Made by a program: the position numbers and the translations under genes | Notes under the pieces: generated by a model | What the model was told of the DNA's origin: nothing | The model's database searches: none | Seen by the model: the letters and a program-made list of their open reading frames with translations, nothing else | Source: an uncultured Clostridia bacterium | GTDB taxonomy: Bacteria; Acidobacteriota; Aminicenantia; JAMOAD01 | Direction: 5' to 3' | Assembly: GCA_964634755.1 (NCBI GenBank) | Contig: CAZWJH010000001.1 | Location: 12,317 to 76,316, forward strand | DNA: 64,000 nt | Part shown: piece after piece, positions 11,597 to 25,473 of the stretch | Numbering within the stretch: the first letter of the stretch is position 1 | Layout of the letters: each line of letters opens with the position of its first letter

Positions 11597-12826
11597 TCAG
11601 GACAGAAGATTGAATGGTTTTATTACTCTGTCCAGAACTCCCTGAAGCTTGGAAATTGCTATCCCGTAATTCGTCATGGGGACATTTCTTCTTACACTCT
11701 CATTGAGTCTTCTCATCATCTCCATCCTGTTTAGCATACATGCTCCACAGTGGATTACAAGGGAAAATTTTTCAAGCTCCTCAGGAAAATCACTTCCGGA
11801 TGCAATCTCTATATTTAATTCTTTACCTGTGTATTGCAAAAGCCATCTCGGAATCTTAACCCTTCCTATATCATCAGCCTGCACATGATGGGAGCATGCC
11901 TCGGCAATAAGCACATTATCCCCGTCTTTAAGCTCATCTATTTTTTTAGCTCCCTTTACAAATTCGGAAAGTTCCCCTTTGTATCTTGAAAAGAGTATTG
12001 AAAATGTCGTAAGTTTAATGCCCTCCGGAACATCGGCGGAAACCTTAAGAATAACCTGCGAATCAGTAATCACCAATGCCGGTTTTTTAACAAGGTTTCT
12101 CAATGTATCTTCAAGCTCTCTCTCTTTTACAACAACAGCTGTCGCATCATTATCCAGAATCTCCCTTATTGTCTGAACCTGAGGTAAAATCAATCTTCCT
12201 TTGGGAGCTGCAAGATCAATGGGAACCACCAAAACTATTATATCTCCTCCCCTTATAAGGTCTCCCACCAAAACCTTCTCCTCTTTCAAATAAGAGGGCG
12301 CAAGCCTTATTATAAGATTTTTAAGCTCATTTATATTTTCACCTGTTTTTGCGGAGACACAGATATGATTTGCTTCTATCTTATCAGCAAATCTTATATC
12401 CCTTTCAAAAGGCTCTTTAATATCAATCTTGTTAAAAACTATTATGTAAGGAATCTTAAGCTCTTTTATTTCAAGAATAATCTTTTCTGTTTTTTCATCA
12501 ATACCATTTTCATCAACAACAATAAGAGCAAGATCGGATTTGAAAAGTACTTTTTTAGTTGCCTTAACTCTCTTTTCGCCCAACTCTCCCGTATCATCAA
12601 TTCCTGCGGTATCATAAAAAGTAACAGGGCCCAAAGGCAAAAGTTCATAATGTTTTGCGACAGGATCTGTTGTTGTTCCGGCAATATCTGACACTATGGC
12701 GATATCCTGCCCCACAATAGCATTAATAAGAGAGGATTTACCAGCATTCCTTTTACCTACAAGCGAAATTATAAGCCTTTCTCCTCTCGGTGCTTTAGCC
12801 ATACTTTCCTCCTTTACAATAAACAA
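11597..12826 (-). CDS. hydF: [FeFe]-hydrogenase maturation GTPase HydF
   Basis: G1 GKRNAGKSSLINA, G3 DTAG, NKID. C-terminal CxHx(n)HCxxC iron-sulfur motif (AEACSHH...IHCGAC). Confidence 0.85.
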   Translation of the reverse strand: MFIVKEESMAKAPRGERLIISLVGKRNAGKSSLINAIVGQDIAIVSDIAGTTTDPVAKHYELLPLGPVTFYDTAGIDDTGELGEKRVKATKKVLFKSDLALIVVDENGIDEKTEKIILEIKELKIPYIIVFNKIDIKEPFERDIRFADKIEANHICVSAKTGENINELKNLIIRLAPSYLKEEKVLVGDLIRGGDIIVLVVPIDLAAPKGRLILPQVQTIREILDNDATAVVVKERELEDTLRNLVKKPALVITDSQVILKVSADVPEGIKLTTFSILFSRYKGELSEFVKGAKKIDELKDGDNVLIAEACSHHVQADDIGRVKIPRWLLQYTGKELNIEIASGSDFPEELEKFSLVIHCGACMLNRMEMMRRLNESVRRNVPMTNYGIAISKLQGVLDRVIKPFNLLS

Positions 12827-12877: not shown

Positions 12878-13876
12878 TCAATTTTTCCCTTTGAAATTTC
12901 CAATGGCTTCAGAGGGGAAAAACCCTGCTGAGGATATAAGTTGTTTTATTTTTTGTACATCTTCAAGTGTAGAGTTATCACTTTCATTTTTCCCCGGGTA
13001 AATATTGTAAAGTTTTCTCACCTTTAAAGGTGTGACAGTTGGCATTATTACATTGGCTCCGACTATAAGCCCCTGAACCCTTGCATCCTTTTCAAGAGAT
13101 GCCATCGCACTTGTGGAAGGTATATTAGAGTAAGGGTTCAAGATTCTTAAAAGAGAAATTGTTCTCAATGATTTTTTAAGATCACCGCAGGAGTAATCAT
13201 AAAGAGGTGTCTTATTGTGAGGGATAAATGGACCAGATGCAATCATATGAAGTCCTAAGAGTGAAAGCTCCAGAATATCACTTGCAAGGATTTCATCTGT
13301 CATTCCGGGAAGACCTATAATCAGACCCGAACCAACCTCATATCCAAGTTTCATCAAAACCTCTATAAGCTTAAGCCTCTCCTTAAGCTCTCTTCCGGGT
13401 CTCATCCTTTTGTAAAGCTCCTGATCAAAGGTTTCAACTTTTAGAAGATATCGGTTAGCTCCGGCATCTTTCCATCTTTTAAGCTCATCATCGCTCCTCT
13501 CTCCCAATGAAAGTGTTATCGCGAGTGAATCATCCCCGTATTTTCCCCTTATCTTTTTTATTACCTTTTCAATAAATTCTCCCGTATAATAGGGGTCATT
13601 TCCAGATTGAAGAACAACAGTTCCCATTTTGCTTTTCTTAACCAATTCCACAGACCCTATTATTTCATCAAAATTTAATCTGTATCTTTTAAGCTCACTG
13701 TTTTGACATCTTAAGCCGCAGTAAAGGCACTTTTCTTTACAAATATTGGAAAATTCAACTATTCCTCTCAAATAAACCTCTTTCCCGAAAAGTTTTTCCC
13801 TTACTCTTTTACCTTCGGCAAAAAGGGATTTATCATACTTTCCTTGTAAAAACTCTTTAATCTCTCTTAATTTCAT
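12878..13876 (-). CDS. hydE: [FeFe]-hydrogenase maturase HydE (radical SAM, biotin synthase-like)
   Basis: CxxxCxxC radical-SAM motif CKEKCLYCGLR, BioB-like TIM barrel length (332 aa). Sits in the hydG/hydF neighbourhood. Confidence 0.85.
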   Translation of the reverse strand: MKLREIKEFLQGKYDKSLFAEGKRVREKLFGKEVYLRGIVEFSNICKEKCLYCGLRCQNSELKRYRLNFDEIIGSVELVKKSKMGTVVLQSGNDPYYTGEFIEKVIKKIRGKYGDDSLAITLSLGERSDDELKRWKDAGANRYLLKVETFDQELYKRMRPGRELKERLKLIEVLMKLGYEVGSGLIIGLPGMTDEILASDILELSLLGLHMIASGPFIPHNKTPLYDYSCGDLKKSLRTISLLRILNPYSNIPSTSAMASLEKDARVQGLIVGANVIMPTVTPLKVRKLYNIYPGKNESDNSTLEDVQKIKQLISSAGFFPSEAIGNFKGKN

Positions 13877-15260
13877 CTTTGGTATACCCCAATTTGTGCA
13901 TTCTTTTCGGATTTAAAAGATTCTTTATTTCATCTTCGGAAAGATAATTCTTTAAAATTTCCTCAACAGGCAAATTCTTCACTTTTGATTCCTTTATTAT
14001 TTTATCAACTGTCTCATATCCCAAAATAGGAACTAAAATAGTAGCTATTGTTTTACTGTTTTTTAAATTTTCTCCGCACTTTTCAGGATTGGCTCTTATT
14101 CCCTCTATGCACTTTTCCCTGAATATTCTTGTTGCATTTATAAGAAGTTTCAGGGATTCTAAAAACACTTTTGATAGAAGGGGATAAAACTGATTAAGCT
14201 CAAGGTTGCCCGATGAGGCAATCATTGTAATAATATTGTCATTTGAAATCACCCTTAGAGCAATCTGAGAAACAGCTTCGGGGATAACAGGATTAACTTT
14301 GCCCGGCATTATCGATGAGCCTGCTTGAACAGGAGGAAGAATTACCTCCCCTATTCCTCCTTTAGGCCCGCTCGAAAGAATTCTGAGATCAGTTGAAATT
14401 TTAAAAAGATTGGAAGCATAAGCTTTTATCATTCCGAAGACTTCAACATAAGCATCAAGGTTTTGAGTGGCATCAACAAGATTCTCAGCTCTTGCTATGT
14501 TTAAGCCGGTTATTTTTCTTAAAGTTTCGGTAACTTTCAGAATATAATCCCTTGCGGCACCAATTCCCGTACCTATCGCAGTTCCTCCCAGATTAACAGT
14601 CTTTATTCTTTCTCTTGATTTAAAAATTCTCCATCTATCCCTTGATATTGCCTCAGCATATGCCCCGAACTCCATACCCAGAGTCATAGGGACAGCATCC
14701 TGAAGCTGTGTTCTTCCTAATTTAACAATATCCTTAAATTCAAACTCCTTTTTTTGAAAAGCCTCCTGAAGGGCAGCTATCTCTGGCTCAAGTTTTCTCA
14801 AAAGTTTTAAGATTGCGACTTTCAAAGCTGTAGGGTAAACATCATTTGTTGATTGATGCATATTAACATGGTGGAGAGGATTAATATATTCATAATCCCC
14901 TTTTTCCCTTCCAGCCTTTTCAAGGGCAATGTTTGCTATGACTTCATTAAAATTCATGTTCGTGGATGTTCCTGCTCCTCCCTGGTAAGGATTCACTATT
15001 ATTTGCTCATGATACTTTCCTTCTATAATTTCATTGCAGGCAAAAATAATAGGTTCCGCAATTTCTCTTTTAAGATAACCCAACTCTTTGTTTGTTATTG
15101 CGGCTGCTAATTTTACCTTTGCAAAAGCCACTATAAACTCTTCAGGAATTTTATCTCCAGAAAAGGGAAAATTCTCGTAAGCTCTAAGAGTATGAATTCC
15201 GTAATATGCGTCATCGGAAAGCTTTTTCTCTCCTAAGGAATCTCCTTCAACTCTCATCAA
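13857..15260 (-). CDS. aspA: aspartate ammonia-lyase (fumarase/aspartase class II family)
   Basis: 467 aa with the GSSxMPxKxN signature (GSSIMPGKVNP) and a typical class II lyase N-terminus. Embedded between hydG and hydE. Confidence 0.85.
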   Translation of the reverse strand: MMRVEGDSLGEKKLSDDAYYGIHTLRAYENFPFSGDKIPEEFIVAFAKVKLAAAITNKELGYLKREIAEPIIFACNEIIEGKYHEQIIVNPYQGGAGTSTNMNFNEVIANIALEKAGREKGDYEYINPLHHVNMHQSTNDVYPTALKVAILKLLRKLEPEIAALQEAFQKKEFEFKDIVKLGRTQLQDAVPMTLGMEFGAYAEAISRDRWRIFKSRERIKTVNLGGTAIGTGIGAARDYILKVTETLRKITGLNIARAENLVDATQNLDAYVEVFGMIKAYASNLFKISTDLRILSSGPKGGIGEVILPPVQAGSSIMPGKVNPVIPEAVSQIALRVISNDNIITMIASSGNLELNQFYPLLSKVFLESLKLLINATRIFREKCIEGIRANPEKCGENLKNSKTIATILVPILGYETVDKIIKESKVKNLPVEEILKNYLSEDEIKNLLNPKRMHKLGYTKDEIKRD

Positions 15261-15513
15261 TATCCTTCCTTAGCTTGCTTAAAAGTTTTTTAATTTTTAA
15301 TCTATCAGGCTTTTCACAGAAAAGCAAATACCTCTCATTTATCCTGTACATTGAGGGAGGCTCAAAACCTGAGGGCTTTTCACCACATACAAAAGAGATT
15401 CTTCTTCCCATTTTCTCGGCAATCCAGAGTCCACCGCATTCATATTCGGCGGAAATCTCTTTAAGATATTTCTCTATTTTATTAAAAGTAGAGATCTCTT
15501 TCGCCATTCTCAA
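15247..15513 (-). CDS. small hypothetical protein (88 aa), translationally coupled between hydG and aspA
   Basis: Overlaps the hydG stop and the aspA start. Contains two short C(G)EKP repeats. No recognisable family. Confidence 0.35.
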   Translation of the reverse strand: MRMAKEISTFNKIEKYLKEISAEYECGGLWIAEKMGRRISFVCGEKPSGFEPPSMYRINERYLLFCEKPDRLKIKKLLSKLRKDIDES

Positions 15514-16969
15514 TTCTTGTCAAATATTCTTTCAGTTTTTTGTATGCTTTTGGCATCTTTTCCTTAACTTCATTGAGTTCTCTCTCTATAAGAGCATTTC
15601 CTATCTTTGCCGTATCCTCTGTTGCAAAATCCAGAAGCCATTCCTTAAAGGTTGTTATTGCATTTAATTTGCAGTATTTTCCTTCTGTTCCCGCTCTGAG
15701 AAGGTCCATTATGCATTTTCCGGTTCTTCCGCATCTGTAACCCGCAGTACAAAAAGATGTTATGTATCCCATTTTTGCAAGATCTCTTATAAGTTCATCG
15801 AGTGTTCTCGGATCCCCGATTAAAAATTGCTGCCTTTCGAGCTCCTGCTCAGTGTATCTGTCACTGTAAGCTCCTATCCCTATCCTTGTGGATGCATCAG
15901 TTTGAGTGATTCCCAATGACATTACCCTGTCTCTTATCTCTTTAGGCTCTCTCGCAGTTAATATCATTCCTGTATAAGGAATCGCAAGTCTCAGCACAAG
16001 AATTATTTTTTCAAAATTCTCATCACTTACCGCATATTTCGTTTTATCTATGTAAGGTGTGTTTGCGGCAGGCTCAAGTCTCGGAAAAGAAACAGTATGA
16101 GGACCTATTCCAAACTTTTTCTCAAGTTCAAGCGCATGATACAAAAGACCCATAACCTCAAATCTCCAATCATAAAGGCCGAAAAGAGCGCCTATTCCAA
16201 CATCATCCACTTCAGCTTCAAGGGCTCTGTGCATACAATAAAGCCTCCATTTGTAATTTCCCTTTAAAGTATTCTGAGGATGAACCATTTTGTATGTTTC
16301 ATGATGATAGGTTTCCTGAAATACCTGATATGTTCCTATACCCACCTCTTTAAGCCTTCTGAGTTCATCAATCTGAAGAGGTGCAGCATTAACATTTGCT
16401 CTCCTTATCTGCCCGTAACCATTTCTTACATTTACTTTCACATCATAGATTGTTCTCAAACTATTTTCAATATAATTAACATCGGTTTTCGGATGCTCTC
16501 CGTAAACAACAATAAGTCTCTTGTGCCCTATCTCCCCGGCAAGCACCTCAGCCTCTCTTCTTATTTCCTCTTCATTTAAAACCCTTCTTTTTATAATTTT
16601 ATTTTCAAGTCTGAATCCGCAGTAAAGACAATTGTTAACACAATAATCTCCCATGTATAAAGGAGCAAAGGTTACTATTCGGTTATCGTAAACCTTTAAT
16701 TTGATTTTAAGAGCAACCTCCTTCATCTCTTCGTAAAGCTCCGGGTCTTTGAGGTTTATAAGCATTGCAGTTTCATCCGGAGAGAGAGTTTCAATTCTCA
16801 AAGCTTTGTCAAAAATCTCTCTTATTCTTACGGGATCCGGGTCTCTGTTCTCCTCTATCTTTCTCCAGATCTCCTCATCATTGATAAAATCATGCTCCCC
16901 GTCCATATACTTTGTAATCTCTTCCTCTTTTATCCTGTTTGCTATCCAGGAATTTAAACTTTCTTTCAT
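15482..16969 (-). CDS. hydG: [FeFe]-hydrogenase maturase HydG (radical SAM tyrosine lyase, ThiH-like)
   Basis: N-terminal CNNCLYCGF radical-SAM motif and the C-terminal auxiliary-cluster motif CTAGYRCGRTGKC. 495 aa. Confidence 0.9.
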   Translation of the reverse strand: MKESLNSWIANRIKEEEITKYMDGEHDFINDEEIWRKIEENRDPDPVRIREIFDKALRIETLSPDETAMLINLKDPELYEEMKEVALKIKLKVYDNRIVTFAPLYMGDYCVNNCLYCGFRLENKIIKRRVLNEEEIRREAEVLAGEIGHKRLIVVYGEHPKTDVNYIENSLRTIYDVKVNVRNGYGQIRRANVNAAPLQIDELRRLKEVGIGTYQVFQETYHHETYKMVHPQNTLKGNYKWRLYCMHRALEAEVDDVGIGALFGLYDWRFEVMGLLYHALELEKKFGIGPHTVSFPRLEPAANTPYIDKTKYAVSDENFEKIILVLRLAIPYTGMILTAREPKEIRDRVMSLGITQTDASTRIGIGAYSDRYTEQELERQQFLIGDPRTLDELIRDLAKMGYITSFCTAGYRCGRTGKCIMDLLRAGTEGKYCKLNAITTFKEWLLDFATEDTAKIGNALIERELNEVKEKMPKAYKKLKEYLTRIENGERDLYF

Positions 16970-16982
16970 TTTAATACCTCCT

Positions 16983-17384
16983 TTAAAAAGCTATTATCTT
17001 TGAGTTGTACAGCAAATTTCTTAATTTTTTTGTTTCTTGATGAAGACGCACGGGTCGTGCGTCTCTACATGCTTTTGGCTTTTGACTGCTCGGCTTTTGT
17101 TGACTTTCGACTTTCAACTTTTGACTTTCGACTTTCGACAACAATGTTTTTACCTCAACTCCCCTGAGCTGTCCGAGTTTACCGGTCAATGCGCCCAATT
17201 CATCTGTAGTACCCTCAAAAATTATGGAAATCACTCTTACGGATTCCTCTTTGAAAGGAATACCCAATCTTCCCTTGATCAAATGGAAATAGGATGAAAG
17301 GATTTGATTGATTTTTTTATAATTTTTGGGATTGTAGACAAATATACCTATTATCCCGAATCTCTTTTTGTTTTCCATTTTCAC
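16983..17384 (-). CDS. TM1266-family putative iron-only hydrogenase system regulator (ACT/NikR-like fold) with a repeat-encoded low-complexity C-terminal tail
   Basis: The first ~82 aa match the small hydrogenase-cluster regulator family (GIIGIFVYN...GRLGIPF...VISIIFEG). The C-terminal ~50 aa (KVESQKLKVESQQ...) is encoded by a heptamer tandem repeat plus a GC hairpin. RBS GGAGGTG upstream. Confidence 0.55.
   Translation of the reverse strand: MKMENKKRFGIIGIFVYNPKNYKKINQILSSYFHLIKGRLGIPFKEESVRVISIIFEGTTDELGALTGKLGQLRGVEVKTLLSKVESQKLKVESQQKPSSQKPKACRDARPVRLHQETKKLRNLLYNSKIIAF
17042..17065. other. GC-rich hairpin (GAAGACGCACG-ggtc-CGTGCGTCTC) about 75 nt upstream of the hydG start
   Basis: 9-10 bp perfect G/C-rich inverted repeat with a 4-nt loop. 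Lies inside the 3' tail of the regulator ORF and upstream of hydG. Confidence 0.5.
17071..17140. repeat. 7-nt tandem repeat array: (GCTTTTG)x2 then (TTCGACT-like)x6
   Basis: Period-7 direct repeats visible by eye at 17099-17140 (gttgact ttcgact ttcaact tttgact ttcgact ttcgaca). Translated as 7-aa periodic KVESQ repeats in the regulator tail. Confidence 0.6.
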
Positions 17385-17432: not shown

Positions 17433-17663
17433 TTAAATTTTACTGTATGCTATTTTTAAATTATCAATTTCTTTTAAATCTTTTAAAAGCTCCTCAAAAA
17501 TTTCCTCTTCTCCCTTAAAAACCACACTCAAAATATAGCCATGATTTTCTGTTTGTGGCAAGCCCATTCTTCCCAATATAAATTCAGCATTTTTGTGCAG
17601 TATTTCATTAATCTCAGGAGCCCTTTTGTTTGCATCCATCAAAATAGTAATTGTCCCTATCAT
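17433..17663 (-). CDS. second TM1266-family small regulator paralog (76 aa)
   Basis: Same pattern as the neighbouring gene (ILMD...ILGRMGLP...ILSVVFKGEEE). Immediately downstream of the hydA stop. Confidence 0.55.
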   Translation of the reverse strand: MIGTITILMDANKRAPEINEILHKNAEFILGRMGLPQTENHGYILSVVFKGEEEIFEELLKDLKEIDNLKIAYSKI

Positions 17664-17664
17664 T

Positions 17665-19473
17665 TTAATGATGTTTGTGAGTTAATTCCTTAACACAGGT
17701 TCCCTTTTCAAGATCTCTTTCAAAATAACAAGTATGAAGAAGTCTGTGAGCAATATCTGAGCCGGGGGATTTGAGGAACTTTTCATAAACTTTTTTAATT
17801 GCCGGATTTTCATGAGAGCATCTCATCGGAAGTTCTCTGTCTTCTTTGTAAAGTCCCTCTCCTCTTCTTGCCCTTCTTGCAAGATCACTTCCATAGGGCT
17901 GTCCGCCTCCACCAACACAACCACCGGGGCATGCCATTATTTCAATAAATGCATACTCACTCTTTCCGGTCTCTTCTATCTGTTTTCTCACTTTTGTTAA
18001 AAGCTCTCGTGCGTTTCCGAGCCCGTGGGCAACTGCCACCTTAAGTTTCATTCCTGCAATTTCAAGCTCTGCTTCTTTTATACCCTGCATTCCTCTGACT
18101 GCTTCAATATCAAGGTTCTTAAGATTTTCTCCTGTGAGCAAAAAGTATGCGGATCTTACAGCAGCTTCCATAACACCTCCGGTAGCTCCAAAGATGGTTG
18201 CAGCTCCCGTATATGCTCCCATAAGATCATCCGCCTTTTCCTCAGGAAGGTTCTTAAAATCTATACCTGCTTCCTTTATCATTCTGACAAATTCTCTTGT
18301 GGTTAAAACATAATCAACATCCTGATACCCTGAATCTCTCATCTCAGGTCTTCGAGCCTCAAATTTTTTAGCTGTACAGGGCATAATTGAAACACTGACT
18401 ATTTTTGCAGGGTCAATACTGTACTCTTGAGCAAAATATGTTTTGGTTAATGTTCCGAACATTTGCTGAGGTGATTTGCAGGTTGAAGTATATTTTGCAA
18501 AATCAGGAAAATATGTTTCCATAAATTTAATCCAGCCGGGGGAACAGGAAGTAATGAGAGGAAGAGGTCCCCCTTCTTTTATTCTGCCAACAAGCTCAGT
18601 ACCCTCTTCCATTATCGTAAGATCAGCTGAAAAATTTGTATCAAAAACATAATCAAAACCTAATTTTTTAAGAGCAGCATACATTTTCCCCACGGTAACA
18701 GTTCCGGGTTCCATTCCGAACTCTTCTCCCAATGTAACTCTGATAGCAGGAGCTTCCTGAACAACAACAACTTTTTCAGGATCAAGCAGAGCTTCCCAGA
18801 CTTCATCTATCTCTGACCTTTCCCTTAATGCTCCTGTTGGACAAAATACGGTACATTGACCGCAATTCACACAAACACTGTTTCCAAGACCTTCTTTAAA
18901 AAATGTATTTACATTAACTTCAAATCCCCTGTCAGCAAAAGTGATTGCATGAACAGTCTGAACTTCATTACATACGGTTACACATCTTCCGCAGGCTATA
19001 CATTTGTTTGGGTCTCTTATAATAGCAATGCTTGTTTCATCAAGAGGTTTATATTCAAGGATTTGATCCAAAGTTTTTGTGTCAACTCCCATATTGTTAG
19101 CAAGCTCCTGAAGTTCACATTTTCCGTTAGCAACACAGCTCGGACAGGAAACATCATGGTTGGATAATATCATCTCTATAACAGTCTTTCTCATCTGTCT
19201 CAATCTAACTGAATTAGTCGTCACCTTCATTCCTTCACTTACAGGTGTACAGCAGGATCTTTTCGGTACTGGAGAGCCTTCGACTTCCACAACACAAACC
19301 CCACATGCTCCGGTGGGCTTTAAATCAGGATGATAGCAAAGAGTCGGAATTGTTGCTCCGACCTTTTTTGCTGCTTCAAGGATAGTCGTTCCTGCCGGAA
19401 CTTCAACTTCTTTACCATCAATGTATAATTTTACTTTATCAGGCATATAAGACCTCCTTATTATTTTTTTCAT
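17665..19473 (-). CDS. hydA: [FeFe]-hydrogenase catalytic subunit HydA (multidomain: 2Fe-2S, His-ligated 4Fe-4S, 2x 4Fe-4S ferredoxin, H-domain)
   Basis: L2 MPCTAKKFE and L3 EIMACPGGCVGGGGQP are canonical. L1 is TSCSPGW, non-canonical. N-terminal plant-type 2Fe-2S cysteines, HxxxCxxCxxxxxC, then CIACGRC and CVNCGQC. The real start is likely ATG at 19446 (MPDKVKLYIDG), overlapping the hydB stop. Confidence 0.9.
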   Translation of the reverse strand: MKKIIRRSYMPDKVKLYIDGKEVEVPAGTTILEAAKKVGATIPTLCYHPDLKPTGACGVCVVEVEGSPVPKRSCCTPVSEGMKVTTNSVRLRQMRKTVIEMILSNHDVSCPSCVANGKCELQELANNMGVDTKTLDQILEYKPLDETSIAIIRDPNKCIACGRCVTVCNEVQTVHAITFADRGFEVNVNTFFKEGLGNSVCVNCGQCTVFCPTGALRERSEIDEVWEALLDPEKVVVVQEAPAIRVTLGEEFGMEPGTVTVGKMYAALKKLGFDYVFDTNFSADLTIMEEGTELVGRIKEGGPLPLITSCSPGWIKFMETYFPDFAKYTSTCKSPQQMFGTLTKTYFAQEYSIDPAKIVSVSIMPCTAKKFEARRPEMRDSGYQDVDYVLTTREFVRMIKEAGIDFKNLPEEKADDLMGAYTGAATIFGATGGVMEAAVRSAYFLLTGENLKNLDIEAVRGMQGIKEAELEIAGMKLKVAVAHGLGNARELLTKVRKQIEETGKSEYAFIEIMACPGGCVGGGGQPYGSDLARRARRGEGLYKEDRELPMRCSHENPAIKKVYEKFLKSPGSDIAHRLLHTCYFERDLEKGTCVKELTHKHH

Positions 19474-21058
19474 TAATTTTTTTCAAGAATTCTTCCTTAA
19501 AATTATCTATTGCGCTTGCGACAGGCATAATTACCGACTGCCCCAAAGGACAGAGAGAAAGATTTCTCATTGTCTCGGCAATATGCTTCATCTTTTTAAG
19601 ATCTTCTTCCTTACCTTCACCGGTTTTAATTCTATAGATAATCTCCAAAAGCTGTCTTGTTCCTATCCTACATGGAGAACACTGCCCACAGGATTCATGG
19701 GCAAAAAACTTCAAAATAGAAAAAAGCATTTCAACAATTGAGGCATCCTCATTCATAACCAAAATTGCTCCTGAGCCCAAAACAGCCATCTGTTCTTTCA
19801 AATTTTCAAAATCCATTTTAACATCCAAGAGTTTATCCGATAAAAACACCCCTGCAGCTCCTCCTACAAGGGCAGCTTTGAATTTTTTTCCATTTTTAAC
19901 TCCTCCCCCGTAAGCATTTATAATTTCTCTGAGTGGAGTTCCCATTTCAACTTCTATAAGTCCCGGATATTCAACATCTCCTAATACAGTAAAAACTTTT
20001 GTTCCGGGAGATTTTTCAGTACCCAATGCTCTGTACCATTCCGCTCCTTTCAAAATAATCACCGGAACATTTGCCAAAGTTTCAACATTATTAACAACTG
20101 TAGGGTTTTGCCATAATCCATGAGTTACAGGATAGGGAGGTTTTATTCGCGGTTGTCCTCTCTTTCCTTCCAATGATTCTATGAGAGCTGTTTCCTCACC
20201 GCATACATAAGCACCGGCACCTTTTTTAACTTCTATATCAAAATTTAAACCAGTTTCAAGGATATTTTTTCCCAAAAGACTAAATTTTTTAGCATCCTCA
20301 ATAGCTCTATTAATTCTATCTATTGAAAGCTGATACTCACCTCTTATGTAGATATATCCCTTTTTAGCACCAACAGCATAGCCTGCTATTATCATTGCTT
20401 CAAGAAGCTTGTGAGGATCTCCTTCTAAAATTAATCTATCTTTATATGTTCCCGGTTCTCCTTCATCAGCATTGCAAATAACAAACTTTTCATCACCTTT
20501 TGCTTTTCTGGTAAATTCCCATTTAAGTCCTGTAGGAAATCCTGCTCCACCTCTTCCTCTTAAACCTGATTTCTTTATTTCCTCTATTACCTGTTCTGGA
20601 CTAATTTTTTCTTCTAAAATTTTTTCAAGAGCCGCATATCCGCCTCTGGCAATTACTTCTTCTATATCAAAAGTATTTACAATACAGCATTTATCCAGAA
20701 CAACTCTCGGCTGCTCTCTCGTAAGCCCTATATTCTCATAATCAACTACATTTTTTCTACCCTCTCCATCAATACTGTTTTCAACACTCTCACAAACCTT
20801 TCCTTTTAAAATATGCTGCTCAACGATATTCTTTGTATCTTTGGGAGTAACATTATAGTAATAAACTCTGTCCGGATAAACAATTAAAACAACACCTCTT
20901 CCTGAAATCCCTACAGGTCCGGTCTCAAGAACTTTAACCTCCTCTTCCACTCCATGCTTAAAGAGCTCTTTATTCAATCTTCTTTTTACTTCAAGCGCAC
21001 CATTTTGAATTGCCTCTTCATCCATAGGAATTAATATATGCATTCTTTGAAAACTCAT
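19439..21058 (-). CDS. hydB: hydrogenase flavoprotein subunit HydB (NuoF-like, FMN/NAD-binding) with an N-terminal Cys-less thioredoxin-like domain
   Basis: [21 protein letters not shown] motif and a 4Fe-4[13 protein letters not shown]. No C-terminal ferredoxin domains. The N-terminal Trx-like domain lacks the usual Cys. Confidence 0.85.
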   Translation of the reverse strand: MSFQRMHILIPMDEEAIQNGALEVKRRLNKELFKHGVEEEVKVLETGPVGISGRGVVLIVYPDRVYYYNVTPKDTKNIVEQHILKGKVCESVENSIDGEGRKNVVDYENIGLTREQPRVVLDKCCIVNTFDIEEVIARGGYAALEKILEEKISPEQVIEEIKKSGLRGRGGAGFPTGLKWEFTRKAKGDEKFVICNADEGEPGTYKDRLILEGDPHKLLEAMIIAGYAVGAKKGYIYIRGEYQLSIDRINRAIEDAKKFSLLGKNILETGLNFDIEVKKGAGAYVCGEETALIESLEGKRGQPRIKPPYPVTHGLWQNPTVVNNVETLANVPVIILKGAEWYRALGTEKSPGTKVFTVLGDVEYPGLIEVEMGTPLREIINAYGGGVKNGKKFKAALVGGAAGVFLSDKLLDVKMDFENLKEQMAVLGSGAILVMNEDASIVEMLFSILKFFAHESCGQCSPCRIGTRQLLEIIYRIKTGEGKEEDLKKMKHIAETMRNLSLCPLGQSVIMPVASAIDNFKEEFLKKINEKNNKEVLYA

Positions 21059-21519
21059 TTTTCCCTCCTCTTTTCCTCAATAATCGATTTTAATCTTTCG
21101 GGGGTAAGATTTCCATAAACTTTATTGTTTATCATAATCGCGGGAGCAACGCCGCAAACACCTAAGCATGAGCTCATTTCAAGAGTGAACAAACCATCTT
21201 TAGTAGTTTCCCCGAATTTAATCCCTAATATTTTCATAAGTTCCTTTGAAATAGTAGTGGAGCCCATAAGATGACAGGGAGGGGATTGACAAACTCTTAT
21301 GACATATTTTCCCCTTGGTTTAAAAGCATACATTGAATAAAATGTTGCAACTCCATGAACAGTGCTCAAAGGAAGTCCCAAATATTCTGAAACAGCTTTC
21401 AAATCTTCCTTTGAAAGATAATGTTCCTCTTTCGAATCCTGAAGTTCATGGAGAATTGCAAGCAAATTTTCACTCTTTTTCTCGTATTTTTCCAATATTT
21501 CTTTCATTTTACACCTCAC
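21055..21519 (-). CDS. hydC: hydrogenase subunit HydC (NuoE-like thioredoxin-fold 2Fe-2S)
   Basis: CQSPPCHL...CLGVCGVAP NuoE-type 2Fe-2S motif. Overlaps the hydB start and the upstream fusion-gene stop. Confidence 0.85.
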
Positions 21520-24500
21520 AGCATCTCTTCAAGGGATTTATGTTTTTTTTCAGCCTTTTTCTTTAATAAAGACTTACCTCTATCACAGTGAAGACATCTT
21601 CTTGCCTCTTCTATAGCATCTTCAAGACTCATTCCCTTGTTAACTTCAAGAGCCATTGATCTAATTCTTTCCTTTACATCAGAATACTCAGGCTTTTTTC
21701 TTGAGATTGTCTTAAGATACGCTTCCTCATCATAATCAGGAACATATTCGCCTCTCTCATCCTCAAAAAGTTTACCTTCATATCCGAAATATTTATCAAT
21801 CGCAATGGCAGCTTTTCTACCTTGAGCAACAGACTCAATCACTGTGGAAGGATAAATCGCATCTCCTCCAGCAAAAACACCTTCTTTCGAAGTCATCATT
21901 GTTTCCGGGTCTACCTTAAGATGCCCGTTTGAATAAAGTTCAAGCCCTGCATGAAGTTTGCTCATAGTAAGTTTTTGACCAATACAGGGAATCACAAGAT
22001 CAGCTTTAACTGTAAACTCAGTTCCCTCAACAGGAACAGGTCTTCTTCTCCCGCTATCATCAAATTCACCCAATTCTGTTCTTATAAATTTAACAGCTTT
22101 TACTTTTCCGTTTTCATCTTTTATTATTTCAAGAGGATTTGTTAGAAACTCAAATTCAATTCCCTCTTCTTCACTCTCTACTATTTCTTCCTGTAAAGCT
22201 GGCATTTCAGCTTTTGTTCTTCTATAAACAATTTTCACATTCTTAGCCCCAAGTCTTAAAGCTGTTCTGGCAGCATCTGTGGCGGTTGAACCTCCGCCGA
22301 CGACAATCACATTTTCACCAACTTCAACATCTTCTCCCAAATTTATCTTTCTCAGAAAATCTATACCACTTATAACTCCTTCGACATCTTCTCCCTTGAT
22401 ATTCATTCTTCTCGAAGTATGAGCCCCTGTTGCAATGAAGACAGCATCAAAGCCTTCTTTTTTAAGTTTGTCCAAGGATTCAACTCTCGTATTGAGCCTA
22501 ATTTCAACACCAGCTTTTTCTATTATTTCTATCTCTTTTAGCGTCACTTTTTTGGGTAATCTGTACTCCGGTATTCCAACTGTCATCATCCCACCCGGTA
22601 TTGGCAGAGCTTCAAAAACAACGGGTTTGTATCCCATTCTTGTAAGATAAAAGCCACATGCAAGGCCAGCAGGACCGGCACCTACAATCGCAATCTTTTC
22701 TTTTTTGGGATTCTCCGGAGGAGCAAATTTAGGCGGCTCACTTAAAGCCCAGTCTGCAAAAAGTCTTTTAACCTCTCTTATTGCCACAGGCTCATCAAAT
22801 TTACCTCTTTCACACCTTTTTTCACAAAAGGCGGGGCAAACTCTAGCGCAAACCGAAGGAAAAGGATTATTCTTCATATGGGTGTAGTATGCAAGCTCGA
22901 GTTTGCCCTCTGCCATATAGGAGATATATCTTGCTGCGTCCACATTAGCCGGACAATTGTTTTCACAAGGAGCATAAAACAGTGAAGCACAAACTCCCGC
23001 TTCACACTCCTTATCAACAATATGCTTTATATATTCATCTCTGAAATATTTTAAAGTCGATAAAACAGGATTTGGAGCTGATTGCCCTAATCCGCAAAGG
23101 GAGGTAGCTTTTATTGTTTCACCCAAATCCTGAAGTCTGTCAAGGTCCTCCAATTTACCCTCTCCCTTTGTTATTCTGTCAAGAATTTCATACATCTGTC
23201 TTAAACCTACTCTACAGGGAGAACACTGTCCGCAGGATTCTTCTATTGAAAATTCAAGAAAGAATTTTGCCATATTAACCATACAGGTATCCTCGTCCAG
23301 AACAATAAGCCCTCCTGATCCCATAATTGATCCCAGTGCTTTTAATGATTCATAATCAATTGGAGAATTCAAAAATTGTTTGGGAATACATCCACCAGAG
23401 GGCCCTCCTGTTTGAACAGCTTTAAATTTCTTACCATTAGGTATTCCTCCTCCGATATCATAAACAAGTTCTCCGAGAGTTATTCCCATAGGAACTTCCA
23501 CAAGCCCGGTGTTTCTGACATTTCCCGAGAGAGCGAAAACTTTTGTTCCTTTACTCTTCTCGGTTCCAATCGAAGCAAACCATGAAGCACCGTTCAAAAT
23601 TATGTGTCTTATATTAGCAAGAGTCTCAACATTATTAATTAAAGTGGGTTTACCCCATAATCCCTTTTGTGCGGGATAAGGAGGCTTGGGTCTCGGCTGC
23701 CCTCTTTCTCCTTCAATAGAAGCAATAAGAGCTGTTTCCTCTCCGCAAACAAAAGCTCCTGCTCCCATTCTAAGCTCTATATCAAAAGAGAAATCTGTCT
23801 CAAAAATATTTTTTCCTAAAAGGCCTAATTCTTTAGCCTGTTTAATAGCTATTTCAAGTCTCTTTATTGCAAGGGGATACTCAGCTCTAACATAAATATA
23901 GCCCATATTTGCGCCAATTGCATACCCTGCAATTGCCATACCTTCCAAAACAGCATGGGGGTCTCCTTCTAATACAGCTCTATCCATAAAAGCACCGGGG
24001 TCTCCCTCATCAGCATTACAAACAACATATTTTTGATCGCCTTTTGAAGCTCTCGTAAACTTCCATTTTAATCCTGTAGGAAACCCTGCTCCTCCTCTTC
24101 CTCTGAGACCAGAATTTATCATCTCTTCGATAACATCTTCAGGCTTCATCTCTGTTAAAACCTTCCCCAAAGCTTCGTATCCTCTTTGGGCAATATACTC
24201 ATTTATATTTTCAGGATCAATCTTACCGCAGTTGGAAAGAACTATTTTTTTCTGTTTCTCAAAAAATGGAATCTGTTTTTTCTCTTCAACTATCTTTCTT
24301 GCTTCCGGGGTTTCCCAGAGAAGCCTTTTTACGGGTCTTCCCTTTAGAAAGTGTTCCTCCACCAATTCCTCTATGTCTTCTTCTTTAAGCTTTATATAAA
24401 AGGAACCATCTGGATAAACAACCATAACAGGCCCCAATTCGCAAGGTCCCATACACCCTGTTTCCACAACATTTATTTCATCGGAGAGCCCTTTTTCCTC

Positions 24501-24593
24501 TATTACTTTAATCAATTTATCTTTTATTTCATGGCTATGAGAGGAGATACAGGCTCCCCCTCCGCATACTAAAACATCAAGTCTTTTTGCCAT
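21516..24593 (-). CDS. NuoF-like flavoprotein fused to a glutamate synthase small-subunit (GltD/NfnB-like) NADPH oxidoreductase domain
   Basis: 1025 aa. N-terminal Trx-like 2Fe-2S domain with its Cys retained (CGGGAC...ETGCMGPC), NuoF FMN motif [25 protein letters not shown], then GltD-type 2x 4Fe-4S ([14 protein letters not shown]; [13 protein letters not shown]) and a Rossmann [18 protein letters not shown] domain. Confidence 0.8.
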
Positions 24594-24962
24594 TTAGCCC
24601 TCCTCTTTAACTTCTAAAATGTACTCTGAAACCGGATTCCCATTAACAATGTGCTCAGCTATTATCTTTCTTGCAACATTATCACTAACATCACCATAAA
24701 CAATTGTGGGTTTACCTTTTTCATAAACAGTGATAACCGGTTCATGAGAGGAAAGTCCTCTTTCTCCGCTTTGAGTTATTAATATATCTCTGAGTTCTCT
24801 TTTTTCTATTTCATTCAAAAGTGCCTTTAAAGTCTCCCTTGCTCCCGAAGCAATTCCGCTTGTTCCCATACTTACAACTATCTTTACTCTTGCTCTCCCT
24901 TCTCTTAAATTCATATCCTTTGAATATTTTTCCCTAATCTTTTTTAAATCAGATAATTTCAT
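24594..24962 (-). CDS. thioredoxin-like ferredoxin-fold protein lacking the cluster-ligating cysteines
   Basis: 122 aa. Matches the Trx-like 2Fe-2S Fd domain layout, but all four ligand positions are Ser (SMGTSGIASG ... GLSSHEP). Confidence 0.5.
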   Translation of the reverse strand: MKLSDLKKIREKYSKDMNLREGRARVKIVVSMGTSGIASGARETLKALLNEIEKRELRDILITQSGERGLSSHEPVITVYEKGKPTIVYGDVSDNVARKIIAEHIVNGNPVSEYILEVKEEG

Positions 24963-24972
24963 TTTAACCTCC

Positions 24973-25473
24973 TTAATTTTCTTCTGCTTTTTTAAAATCT
25001 TTTATTATATTTATAGCTTTTTGAGGACTTAATCTTCCGAATACTTCCTCATCAATCACCATAACAGGAGCAAGACCACAGGCGCCAAAACATCTTGCCG
25101 TTGAAACAGTATAAAATTTGTCCTCTGTAGTTCCACCAACCTCAACGCCTAACTCTTTGCAAAGAGCATCCAAAATAACCTTTGAACCCTTAACATGACA
25201 GGCAGTACCAGTGCAAACATTAATAACATGTTTTCCTATTGGCTCTGTTCTGAAAAAATTATAAAAAGTTACAACTCCGTAGATCTCGGAAAGAGGTACA
25301 TTAAGATGCATTGAAACGAATTTTTGAACTTCAGCTGGCAAATAACCGAAAATACTCTGAGCTTTATGAAGAACCTGAATAAGAGGACCGGGGGTATTCC
25401 GATGCTCATCAATAAACTTTTTCAATGCCCGATACTCTTCATTATCGGGGATATGAAACCTTGCGCTATCCAT
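24973..25473 (-). CDS. second NuoE-like 2Fe-2S subunit
   Basis: CTGTACHVKG...ARCFGACGLAPV NuoE-family motif. 166 aa. Confidence 0.8.
   Translation of the reverse strand: MDSARFHIPDNEEYRALKKFIDEHRNTPGPLIQVLHKAQSIFGYLPAEVQKFVSMHLNVPLSEIYGVVTFYNFFRTEPIGKHVINVCTGTACHVKGSKVILDALCKELGVEVGGTTEDKFYTVSTARCFGACGLAPVMVIDEEVFGRLSPQKAINIIKDFKKAEEN

Follow-up and report, generated by a model that had tools for sequence, protein, structure and literature searches.

The window analysed here, a stretch of DNA of 64,000 nucleotides, carries on its minus strand a co-directional cluster of [FeFe]-hydrogenase genes (Table 1). Read along that strand, the order is a NuoE-like gene, a NuoF-GltD fusion, HydC, HydB, HydA, two TM1266-like genes, HydG, an aspartate-ammonia-lyase-family gene, HydE and HydF. 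The catalytic subunit, HydA, is thus flanked on one side by NuoE- and NuoF-type partners and on the other by the three maturases for the 2Fe subsite, HydE, HydF and HydG, which lie 0.7-6 kb downstream of hydA. The lyase-family gene sits amid the maturase genes, and ammonia-lyases are reportedly tied, in the title of one paper, to the synthesis of the adt ligand. The true start of HydA is likely to be Met10, at 19446, where gene callers place it, giving a protein of 593 aa; we nevertheless number residues from the ATG of the longer open reading frame at 19473, so that Ser311 in this text is Ser302 in database numbering.

Table 1. Genes of the hydrogenase cluster and motifs of HydA, with positions in the window.
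Feature	Position	Strand	Remarks
HydF, H-cluster maturation GTPase	11597..12826	-	TIGR03918, 575 bits, cut-off 326
HydE, H-cluster radical-SAM maturase	12878..13876	-	TIGR03956, 297 bits, cut-off 255
Aspartate-ammonia-lyase-family gene	13857..15260	-	NF008909, 645 bits
HydG, H-cluster radical-SAM maturase	15482..16969	-	TIGR03955, 464 bits, cut-off 312
TM1266-family putative [FeFe]-hydrogenase system regulator	16983..17384	-	TIGR03959, 100.5 bits, cut-off 60.8
Small TM1266-like gene, 76 aa	17433..17663	-	directly 3' of hydA; PF21699; predicted on the JGI and Logan contigs, which are identical
HydA, M3-type [FeFe]-hydrogenase catalytic subunit	17665..19473	-	602-aa ORF; Pfam, NCBIfam and PDB matches
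L3 motif EIMACPGGCVGGGGQP	17896..17943	-	Cys515, Cys519 = CpI Cys499, Cys503 (bridging ligand); Met513 conserved
L2 motif MPCTAKKFE	18358..18384	-	Cys366 = CpI Cys355 ligand; Met364, Lys369 conserved
L1 motif TSCSPGW	18532..18552	-	residues 308-314
Ser311 codon TCC	18541..18543	-	L1 ligand position of the [4Fe-4S]H cubane; = CpI Cys300, T. kivui Cys299, A. woodii Ser301
Cys310 codon TGT	18544..18546	-	= CpI Cys299, proton-relay cysteine adjoining the adt bridge; conserved
HydB-like NuoF-family flavoprotein, 539 aa	19439..21058	-	
HydC-like NuoE-family [2Fe-2S] protein, 154 aa	21055..21519	-	
Second NuoF-type protein fused to a GltD-like NAD(P)H/FAD oxidoreductase, 1025 aa	21516..24593	-	N-terminal [2Fe-2S] cysteines and GGPSG kept
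Second NuoE-like [2Fe-2S] protein, 166 aa	24973..25473	-	

Partner subunits and operon layout

The arrangement of partner genes around this form of HydA is widely shared. Among 80 orthologous loci from species-representative GTDB genomes, a HydB-like gene precedes hydA in 74 and a HydC-like gene in 69, and a NuoF homologue occupies the position of the NuoF-GltD fusion in 67. HydB proteins of the bifurcating type (Bfu family) have been defined by an N-terminal [2Fe-2S] cluster, C-terminal [4Fe-4S] clusters (B2-B5) and a GGPSG motif (Losey 2020; Schut 2022). The HydB of the window has an N-terminal thioredoxin-like domain that lacks the cluster cysteines, ends directly after its NADH_4Fe-4S domain with no C-terminal ferredoxin domain, and reads GGAAG where the bifurcating protein has GGPSG. 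By these published criteria, as applied to its predicted domains, it is of the non-bifurcating type, and it resembles the short HydB of non-bifurcating systems, which likewise lacks the extra clusters and GGPSG. Unlike those systems, however, the operon in the window also encodes the GGPSG-containing NuoF-GltD fusion. As this fusion has both the N-terminal cysteines and GGPSG, bifurcation by a larger complex is conceivable.

The two-module layout, with its second NuoE/NuoF-GltD pair, is a more unusual feature of this locus than the Ser that is discussed below.

Family and catalytic residues of HydA

The Pfam domains of HydA are a [2Fe-2S] Fer2_4 domain, a NuoG-type His-ligated 4Fe-4S domain, two ferredoxin-type 4Fe-4S domains, the H-domain Fe_hyd_lg_C (PF02906, E 1e-100) and a C-terminal, small-subunit-like Fe_hyd_SSU domain. 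The protein scores 538.6 bits against TIGR02512, 'FeFe_hydrog_A' (cut-off 406), and 859.3 bits against NCBIfam NF040763, 'NADH-dependent [FeFe] hydrogenase, group A6' (cut-off 765). Its best matches among PDB chains are 8a6t_A from Thermoanaerobacter kivui (E 9e-187) and 7q4v_A from Acetobacterium woodii (E 7e-185, over residues 15-584), followed by CpI of Clostridium pasteurianum, with H-domain identities of 54%, 53% and 48% respectively.

Alignment with CpI accounts for nearly every residue expected at an active site of this kind. The proton pathway is kept as C310, E290, S330, E293 and R297 (CpI C299, E279, S319, E282 and R286), the residues of the 2Fe site as M364, M513 and K369 (CpI M353, M497 and K358), and the cubane ligands C366, C515 and C519 all match CpI. 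The L2 (MPCxxKxxE) and L3 (ExMxCxxGCxxG) patterns are found as MPCTAKKFE, with Cys366, and EIMACPGGCVGG, with Cys515 and Cys519, so that three Cys ligands of the cubane remain. The exception is L1, where the textbook TSCCPxW is replaced by TSCSPGW.

The L1 motif and its register

An earlier, sequence-only reading of this DNA had drawn attention to L1, giving it as TSCSPGW with the Ser encoded by TCC, and had described L2 and L3 as intact. We re-read the reverse complement of 18532..18552 and obtained ACT TCC TGT TCC CCC GGC TGG, the same motif and the same codon, and both of the other motifs are likewise present in the sequence as described. The reading had also assigned the first Cys of TSCCPxW to the proton relay and the second to the cubane. 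This agrees with the alignment to CpI C299 and C300, and with the description of HydA1 from Chlamydomonas reinhardtii (CrHydA1), in which C115 is the cubane ligand and cysteine 114 the adjoining residue (Kertess 2017, PMC5855289).

The position of the Ser was the same in two types of alignment. In HMMER alignments against PDB chains, L1 is free of gaps and Ser311 falls on Cys299 of T. kivui (TSCC299PSW), Ser301 of A. woodii (TSCS301PGW) and Cys300 of CpI. A MAFFT alignment of 114 H-domains places it in the same column as CpI Cys300, and the neighbouring relay column, that of Cys310, holds Cys in 114/114 of the aligned sequences. A shifted register that would supply L1 with two cysteines was considered and rejected, as both programs align L1 without gaps and leave the Ser on CpI Cys300; the comparison with orthologues and CpI that the sequence-only reading had proposed therefore restores no second Cys. 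A Ser at the position of CpI Cys300, next to a retained relay Cys, is what defines the natural Ser-ligand subclass of HydA, of which A. woodii HydA1 is the type, and the HydA of the window has both features.

Conservation of the Ser

The Ser is not peculiar to this gene. Among the 120 closest database homologues (67-100% identity), TSCSPGW is found in 119, and the sole exception is a partial homologue, P0066 (75% identity), with TSCCPGW. In the species-representative genomes, Ser occupies this position in 80/80 orthologous loci, which span Ca. Aminicenantes (the nearest, at 93%), Hydrothermota/WOR-3, Spirochaetota, Clostridia and Cloacimonadota; Ala, Gly and Thr do not occur there. Each of the four TCN codons is used (TCT 33, TCA 25, TCC 13 and TCG 9), a pattern of synonymous drift under amino-acid conservation, and the Ser is under purifying selection. 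At the level of DNA, a JGI metagenome assembly and the Logan assembly of SRR7051284 carry hydA without a single difference (0/1782 mismatches), the TCC codon included, although these two assemblies perhaps stem from one sample or from related ones and so speak for reproducibility across assemblers only.

Beyond this clade, Ser-type HydA is a substantial minority of the family. Taking the 150 closest representatives of 50%-identity clusters, we counted 24 sequences with xSCSP and approximately 100 with xSCCP, or approximately 19% Ser, which compares with the figure of approximately 20% of HydA sequences that is quoted, from Winkler 2013, in a passage of Kertess 2017 (PMC5855289). The motif TSCSPGW itself was remarked on in the hydrogenases of Melainabacteria (Di Rienzi et al. 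2013). That paper was the only relevant one returned by a full-text literature search for 'TSCSP', a search that reaches text and not the figures in which such motifs are mostly presented. Thus, the literature already records the Ser variant, how frequent it is and that it is compatible with an active enzyme, and the variant is a natural and conserved one. Furthermore, because some 19-20% of the family, including the active HydA1 of A. woodii, depart from TSCCPxW, this motif is a consensus and not a true criterion for membership of the group A HydA proteins.

In a neighbour-joining tree, the HydA of the window lies inside one tight clade in which all members have Ser, and the other Ser forms are singletons scattered among Cys-type sequences. 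Parsimony gives approximately 15 changes between Cys and Ser on this rough tree of 50%-identity representatives, a figure that is indicative only, as the deep nodes are weak. This distribution suggests that the codon may have toggled repeatedly between Cys and Ser by single-base changes, whether neutral or adaptive.

Comparison with characterized enzymes

The most informative comparison is with HydA1 of A. woodii (PDB 7Q4V, 7Q4W and 8A5E), in which L1 (ITSCSPGWIKF) is identical to that of the window and Ser301 stands at the cubane-ligand position. The two proteins share the M3 architecture and NuoF/NuoE-type partners. They differ in that the A. woodii HydB is a bifurcating one, whose additional Fe-S clusters lie in domains that the HydB of the window does not have, and in that the operon of the window has the added second NuoE/NuoF-GltD pair; in the rough neighbour-joining tree, moreover, the two HydA proteins fall in different sub-branches. 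The A. woodii HydABC complex is active, with a bifurcation activity of 4.1 U/mg and the infrared signature of a canonical H-cluster, and its structure has been solved at 3.4 A (Katsyv 2023, PMC10021017).

The best-scoring solved structure is that of HydA from the T. kivui HydABC complex (PDB 8A6T and 8BEW), which shares both architecture and catalytic residues with the HydA of the window and differs in having the canonical TSCCPSW, with Cys299 as ligand. CpI, the prototype of the group A M3 enzymes, has the same domain order, and its H-cluster and proton-pathway residues align with those of the window; however, CpI is monomeric and ferredoxin-dependent, and has Cys300 where the window has Ser311. 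In the C115S variant of CrHydA1, Ser likewise replaces the ligand Cys that comes second in TSCCP. Most of the [4Fe-4S] cluster of this variant is lost, no [2Fe] subsite is taken up, and there is no measurable activity (Kertess 2017, PMC5855289), but the variant is engineered, whereas the natural Ser-type enzymes are conserved.

Ligation of the cubane

We consider it probable, at roughly 0.8 for the reading as a whole, that the HydA open reading frame specifies the catalytic subunit of a group A [FeFe]-hydrogenase that is multimeric and NAD(P)H-linked, and that its cubane would be held by three Cys (Cys366, Cys515 and the bridging Cys519) together with Ser311 in an ordinary, active H-cluster. 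The assignment to this family draws on the sequence, and the state of the cluster on analogy with A. woodii HydA1. In the most likely mechanism, O-gamma of Ser311 would bind the fourth iron of the cubane and Cys310 would relay protons to the adt bridge in the normal way. An ordinary H-cluster would be assembled, H2 would be turned over normally, and electrons would be exchanged with the adjacent NuoF/NuoE-type subunits. By the same analogy, we infer that the activity and normal H-cluster of the A. woodii enzyme carry over to the HydA of the window, and that the contact made by Ser311 is a true Ser-O-Fe bond. The sequence-only reading had offered three explanations for the Ser, namely ligation through oxygen, a non-catalytic or sensory HydA, and a single-base sequencing error; only the first of these is supported, by homology to Ser301 of A. 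woodii HydA1. That residue was modelled as a cubane ligand in the 3.4 A cryo-EM map, which is too coarse to prove a Ser-O-Fe bond (Katsyv 2023, PMC10021017), and our literature searches for EPR, Mossbauer or EXAFS evidence of O-ligation found none.

The alternative that survives best, although we judge it quite unlikely, is that Ser311 is not the fourth ligand, either because Cys310 shifts to the cubane or because water or hydroxide ligates the iron while Ser311 only hydrogen-bonds. There is precedent for both in the work on CrHydA1, where it was suggested that Cys114 may stand in as ligand in C115A and that solvent may complete the coordination in Ala variants (Kertess 2017, PMC5855289). The A. 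woodii map cannot tell these cases apart from ligation by Ser, yet the authors of that structure modelled Ser301 as a ligand, and the occurrence of Ser in all 80 loci, with no Ala, Gly or Thr, argues for a requirement for the hydroxyl group itself. Mutation of the relay Cys (CpI C299, CrHydA1 C169) severely impairs activity. A shift of Cys310 to the cubane would cost the enzyme this relay, and the A. woodii complex is nevertheless active with a normal infrared signature.

Much less probable still is the reading of this HydA as a paralogue that is non-catalytic, sensory or decaying, the missing ligand Cys being a sign of lost activity, as in the group C/D HydS or Narf-like proteins. Sensory enzymes such as TmHydS and TamHydS lose several of the catalytic residues; marks of this type are a lost relay Cys, altered Met around the 2Fe site and a PAS or signalling domain. 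The HydA of the window keeps its relay Cys and the two Met, as well as E290, E293, R297, S330 and K369, and the Pfam search of HydA revealed no PAS or signalling domain. Although a cluster ligand has been replaced, and although the C115S variant of CrHydA1 is inactive, the remaining evidence points the other way: the score lies above the curated group A6 cut-off, the gene stands in a hydCBA-type operon with hydG, hydE and hydF close by, conservation across phyla indicates purifying selection, and A. woodii HydA1 is active with the same motif. The proposal of a sensory HydA is accordingly not supported, given the intact catalytic residues and a HydABC-type operon beside maturase genes.

Finally, TCC is one base from TGC and P0066, a partial homologue of the same clade, reads TSCCPGW, but the chance that a sequencing or assembly error has concealed a canonical TSCCPGW is negligible, and Ser311 is genuine, because Ser is found in 119/120 homologues and 80/80 species genomes with four TCN codons, the gene containing TCC is identical in the JGI and Logan assemblies, and A. 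woodii HydA1, an enzyme that has been purified and structurally solved, has this motif too; the suggestion of a change from TGC to TCC is thereby refuted.

Implications and tolerance of the Ser

A large, curated clade of [FeFe]-hydrogenases, multimeric and NAD(P)H-linked, has TSCSPGW as its normal signature. Annotation pipelines should not treat an apparently defective L1 motif of this kind as erroneous, or as the mark of a pseudogene or sensory paralogue. The question that remains is not specific to the window: how do natural enzymes thrive with a Ser where the engineered change from Cys to Ser abolishes the activity of CrHydA1? Since CrHydA1 C115S is inactive while the natural Ser-type enzyme of A. 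woodii is active, tolerance of the Ser depends on the scaffold. The HydA of the window, or any member of its clade, is a possible test bed for reciprocal swaps between Ser and Cys.

We looked for residues that vary together with the Ser/Cys state by computing mutual information for all other columns of the H-domain (18 thinned Ser-type and 86 Cys-type sequences). None was diagnostic, the maximum being 0.25 bits compared with 0.665 for the site itself, and the top columns were variable positions. The only local tendency was towards Gly at the x of PxW, in 25/28 Ser-type and 34/86 Cys-type sequences, in raw counts that ignore phylogeny. CrHydA1, which reads TSCCPGW, has this Gly as well, so that Gly in PxW is insufficient for tolerance of the Ser.

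It is also conceivable, although rather doubtful, that the choice between Cys and Ser is adaptive rather than neutral and acts as a switch for redox tuning, with features of the scaffold making a serinate viable where CrHydA1 fails. Ligation through the oxygen of Ser would then shift the potential of [4Fe-4S]H, and the catalytic bias, to fit electrons at the level of NAD(P)H. Two observations are in keeping with such tuning: the approximately 15 changes of state on the rough tree are each a single TGY/TCY transversion, and the clade in which Ser has become fixed (80/80) nearly always has NuoF/NuoE modules coupled to it.

Cys-type sequences close to the Ser-type clade

The hydA product carries a serine at the cubane-ligand position of its L1 motif (TSCSPGW, here termed Ser-type, as opposed to the canonical Cys-type TSCCPxW). 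Among its 120 closest homologues, only one sequence has Cys at this position (TSCCPGW), namely P0066, a partial Ca. Aminicenantes protein with 75% identity. Either this Cys is a natural reversion inside the Ser clade, or the P0066 record is in error. Separately, one of the related loci (L006; Ca. Aminicenantes MAG DAONEM010000018.1) encodes, at approximately position 16839, a second HydA paralogue with a canonical TSCCPGW motif, and this lies about 7 kb downstream of the same genome's Ser-type hydA. Thus, Ser-type and Cys-type enzymes share one genome neighbourhood.

The top match of the representative search was P0121, a protein of 4122 aa with seven matched stretches, in which MPCTVKKTE / EIMMCEGGCMNG motifs are repeated; a pattern search of the 4122-aa sequence did not find a TSCxP-type L1. 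P0121 looks like a giant polyprotein with multiple H-domains, or else like a fusion created by mis-calling.

Organization of the hydrogenase operon

Two NuoE/NuoF modules are found within the hydrogenase operon (19439..25473, minus strand), one containing a short HydB with its HydC partner and the other, upstream, a NuoF-GltD fusion with its own NuoE-like gene (see table). A longer NuoF is present upstream of hydC in 67 of the 80 related loci. Across these loci, fusion to GltD, giving a protein of about 1030 aa, is limited to the closest relatives and some Spirochaetota and Clostridia MAGs, and Cloacimonadota loci have a NuoF of about 620 aa in place of the fused protein. The two-module operon could represent a dual NADH/NADPH or a bifurcating multi-module hydrogenase.

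In its longest form, the hydA ORF shares 35 nt (19439..19473) with the end of hydB. Gene callers start hydA at Met10 (19446), which reduces the overlap to 8 nt, so that a residue's number in databases equals its number in the present ORF-based scheme minus 9.

hydA and hydG are separated by a tandem pair of TM1266-like ('iron-only hydrogenase system regulator') genes; the first one, at 76 aa, falls under the ORF cut-off of 80 aa. An aspartate-ammonia-lyase-family gene occupies the same hydG/hydE position in 8 of the 80 related loci; synthesis of the dithiomethylamine ligand has reportedly been tied to ammonia-lyases, going by the title of one published study (PMC11736057).

Genes flanking hydA (window coordinates)
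Feature	Position	Strand	Length (aa)	Remarks
Aspartate-ammonia-lyase-family gene	13857..15260	-		between hydG and hydE
Second TM1266-like gene	16983..17384	-		
First TM1266-like gene	17433..17663	-	76	start 2 nt past hydA stop codon
HydB, short, non-bifurcating type		-	539	without N-terminal cluster Cys or C-terminal Fer4 domains; GGAAG
HydC, partner of 539-aa HydB		-	154	
NuoF-GltD fusion, upstream module		-	1025	N-terminal [2Fe-2S] Cys; GGPSG; GltD-like NAD(P)H oxidoreductase part
NuoE-like gene	24973..25473	-	166	paired with NuoF-GltD fusion
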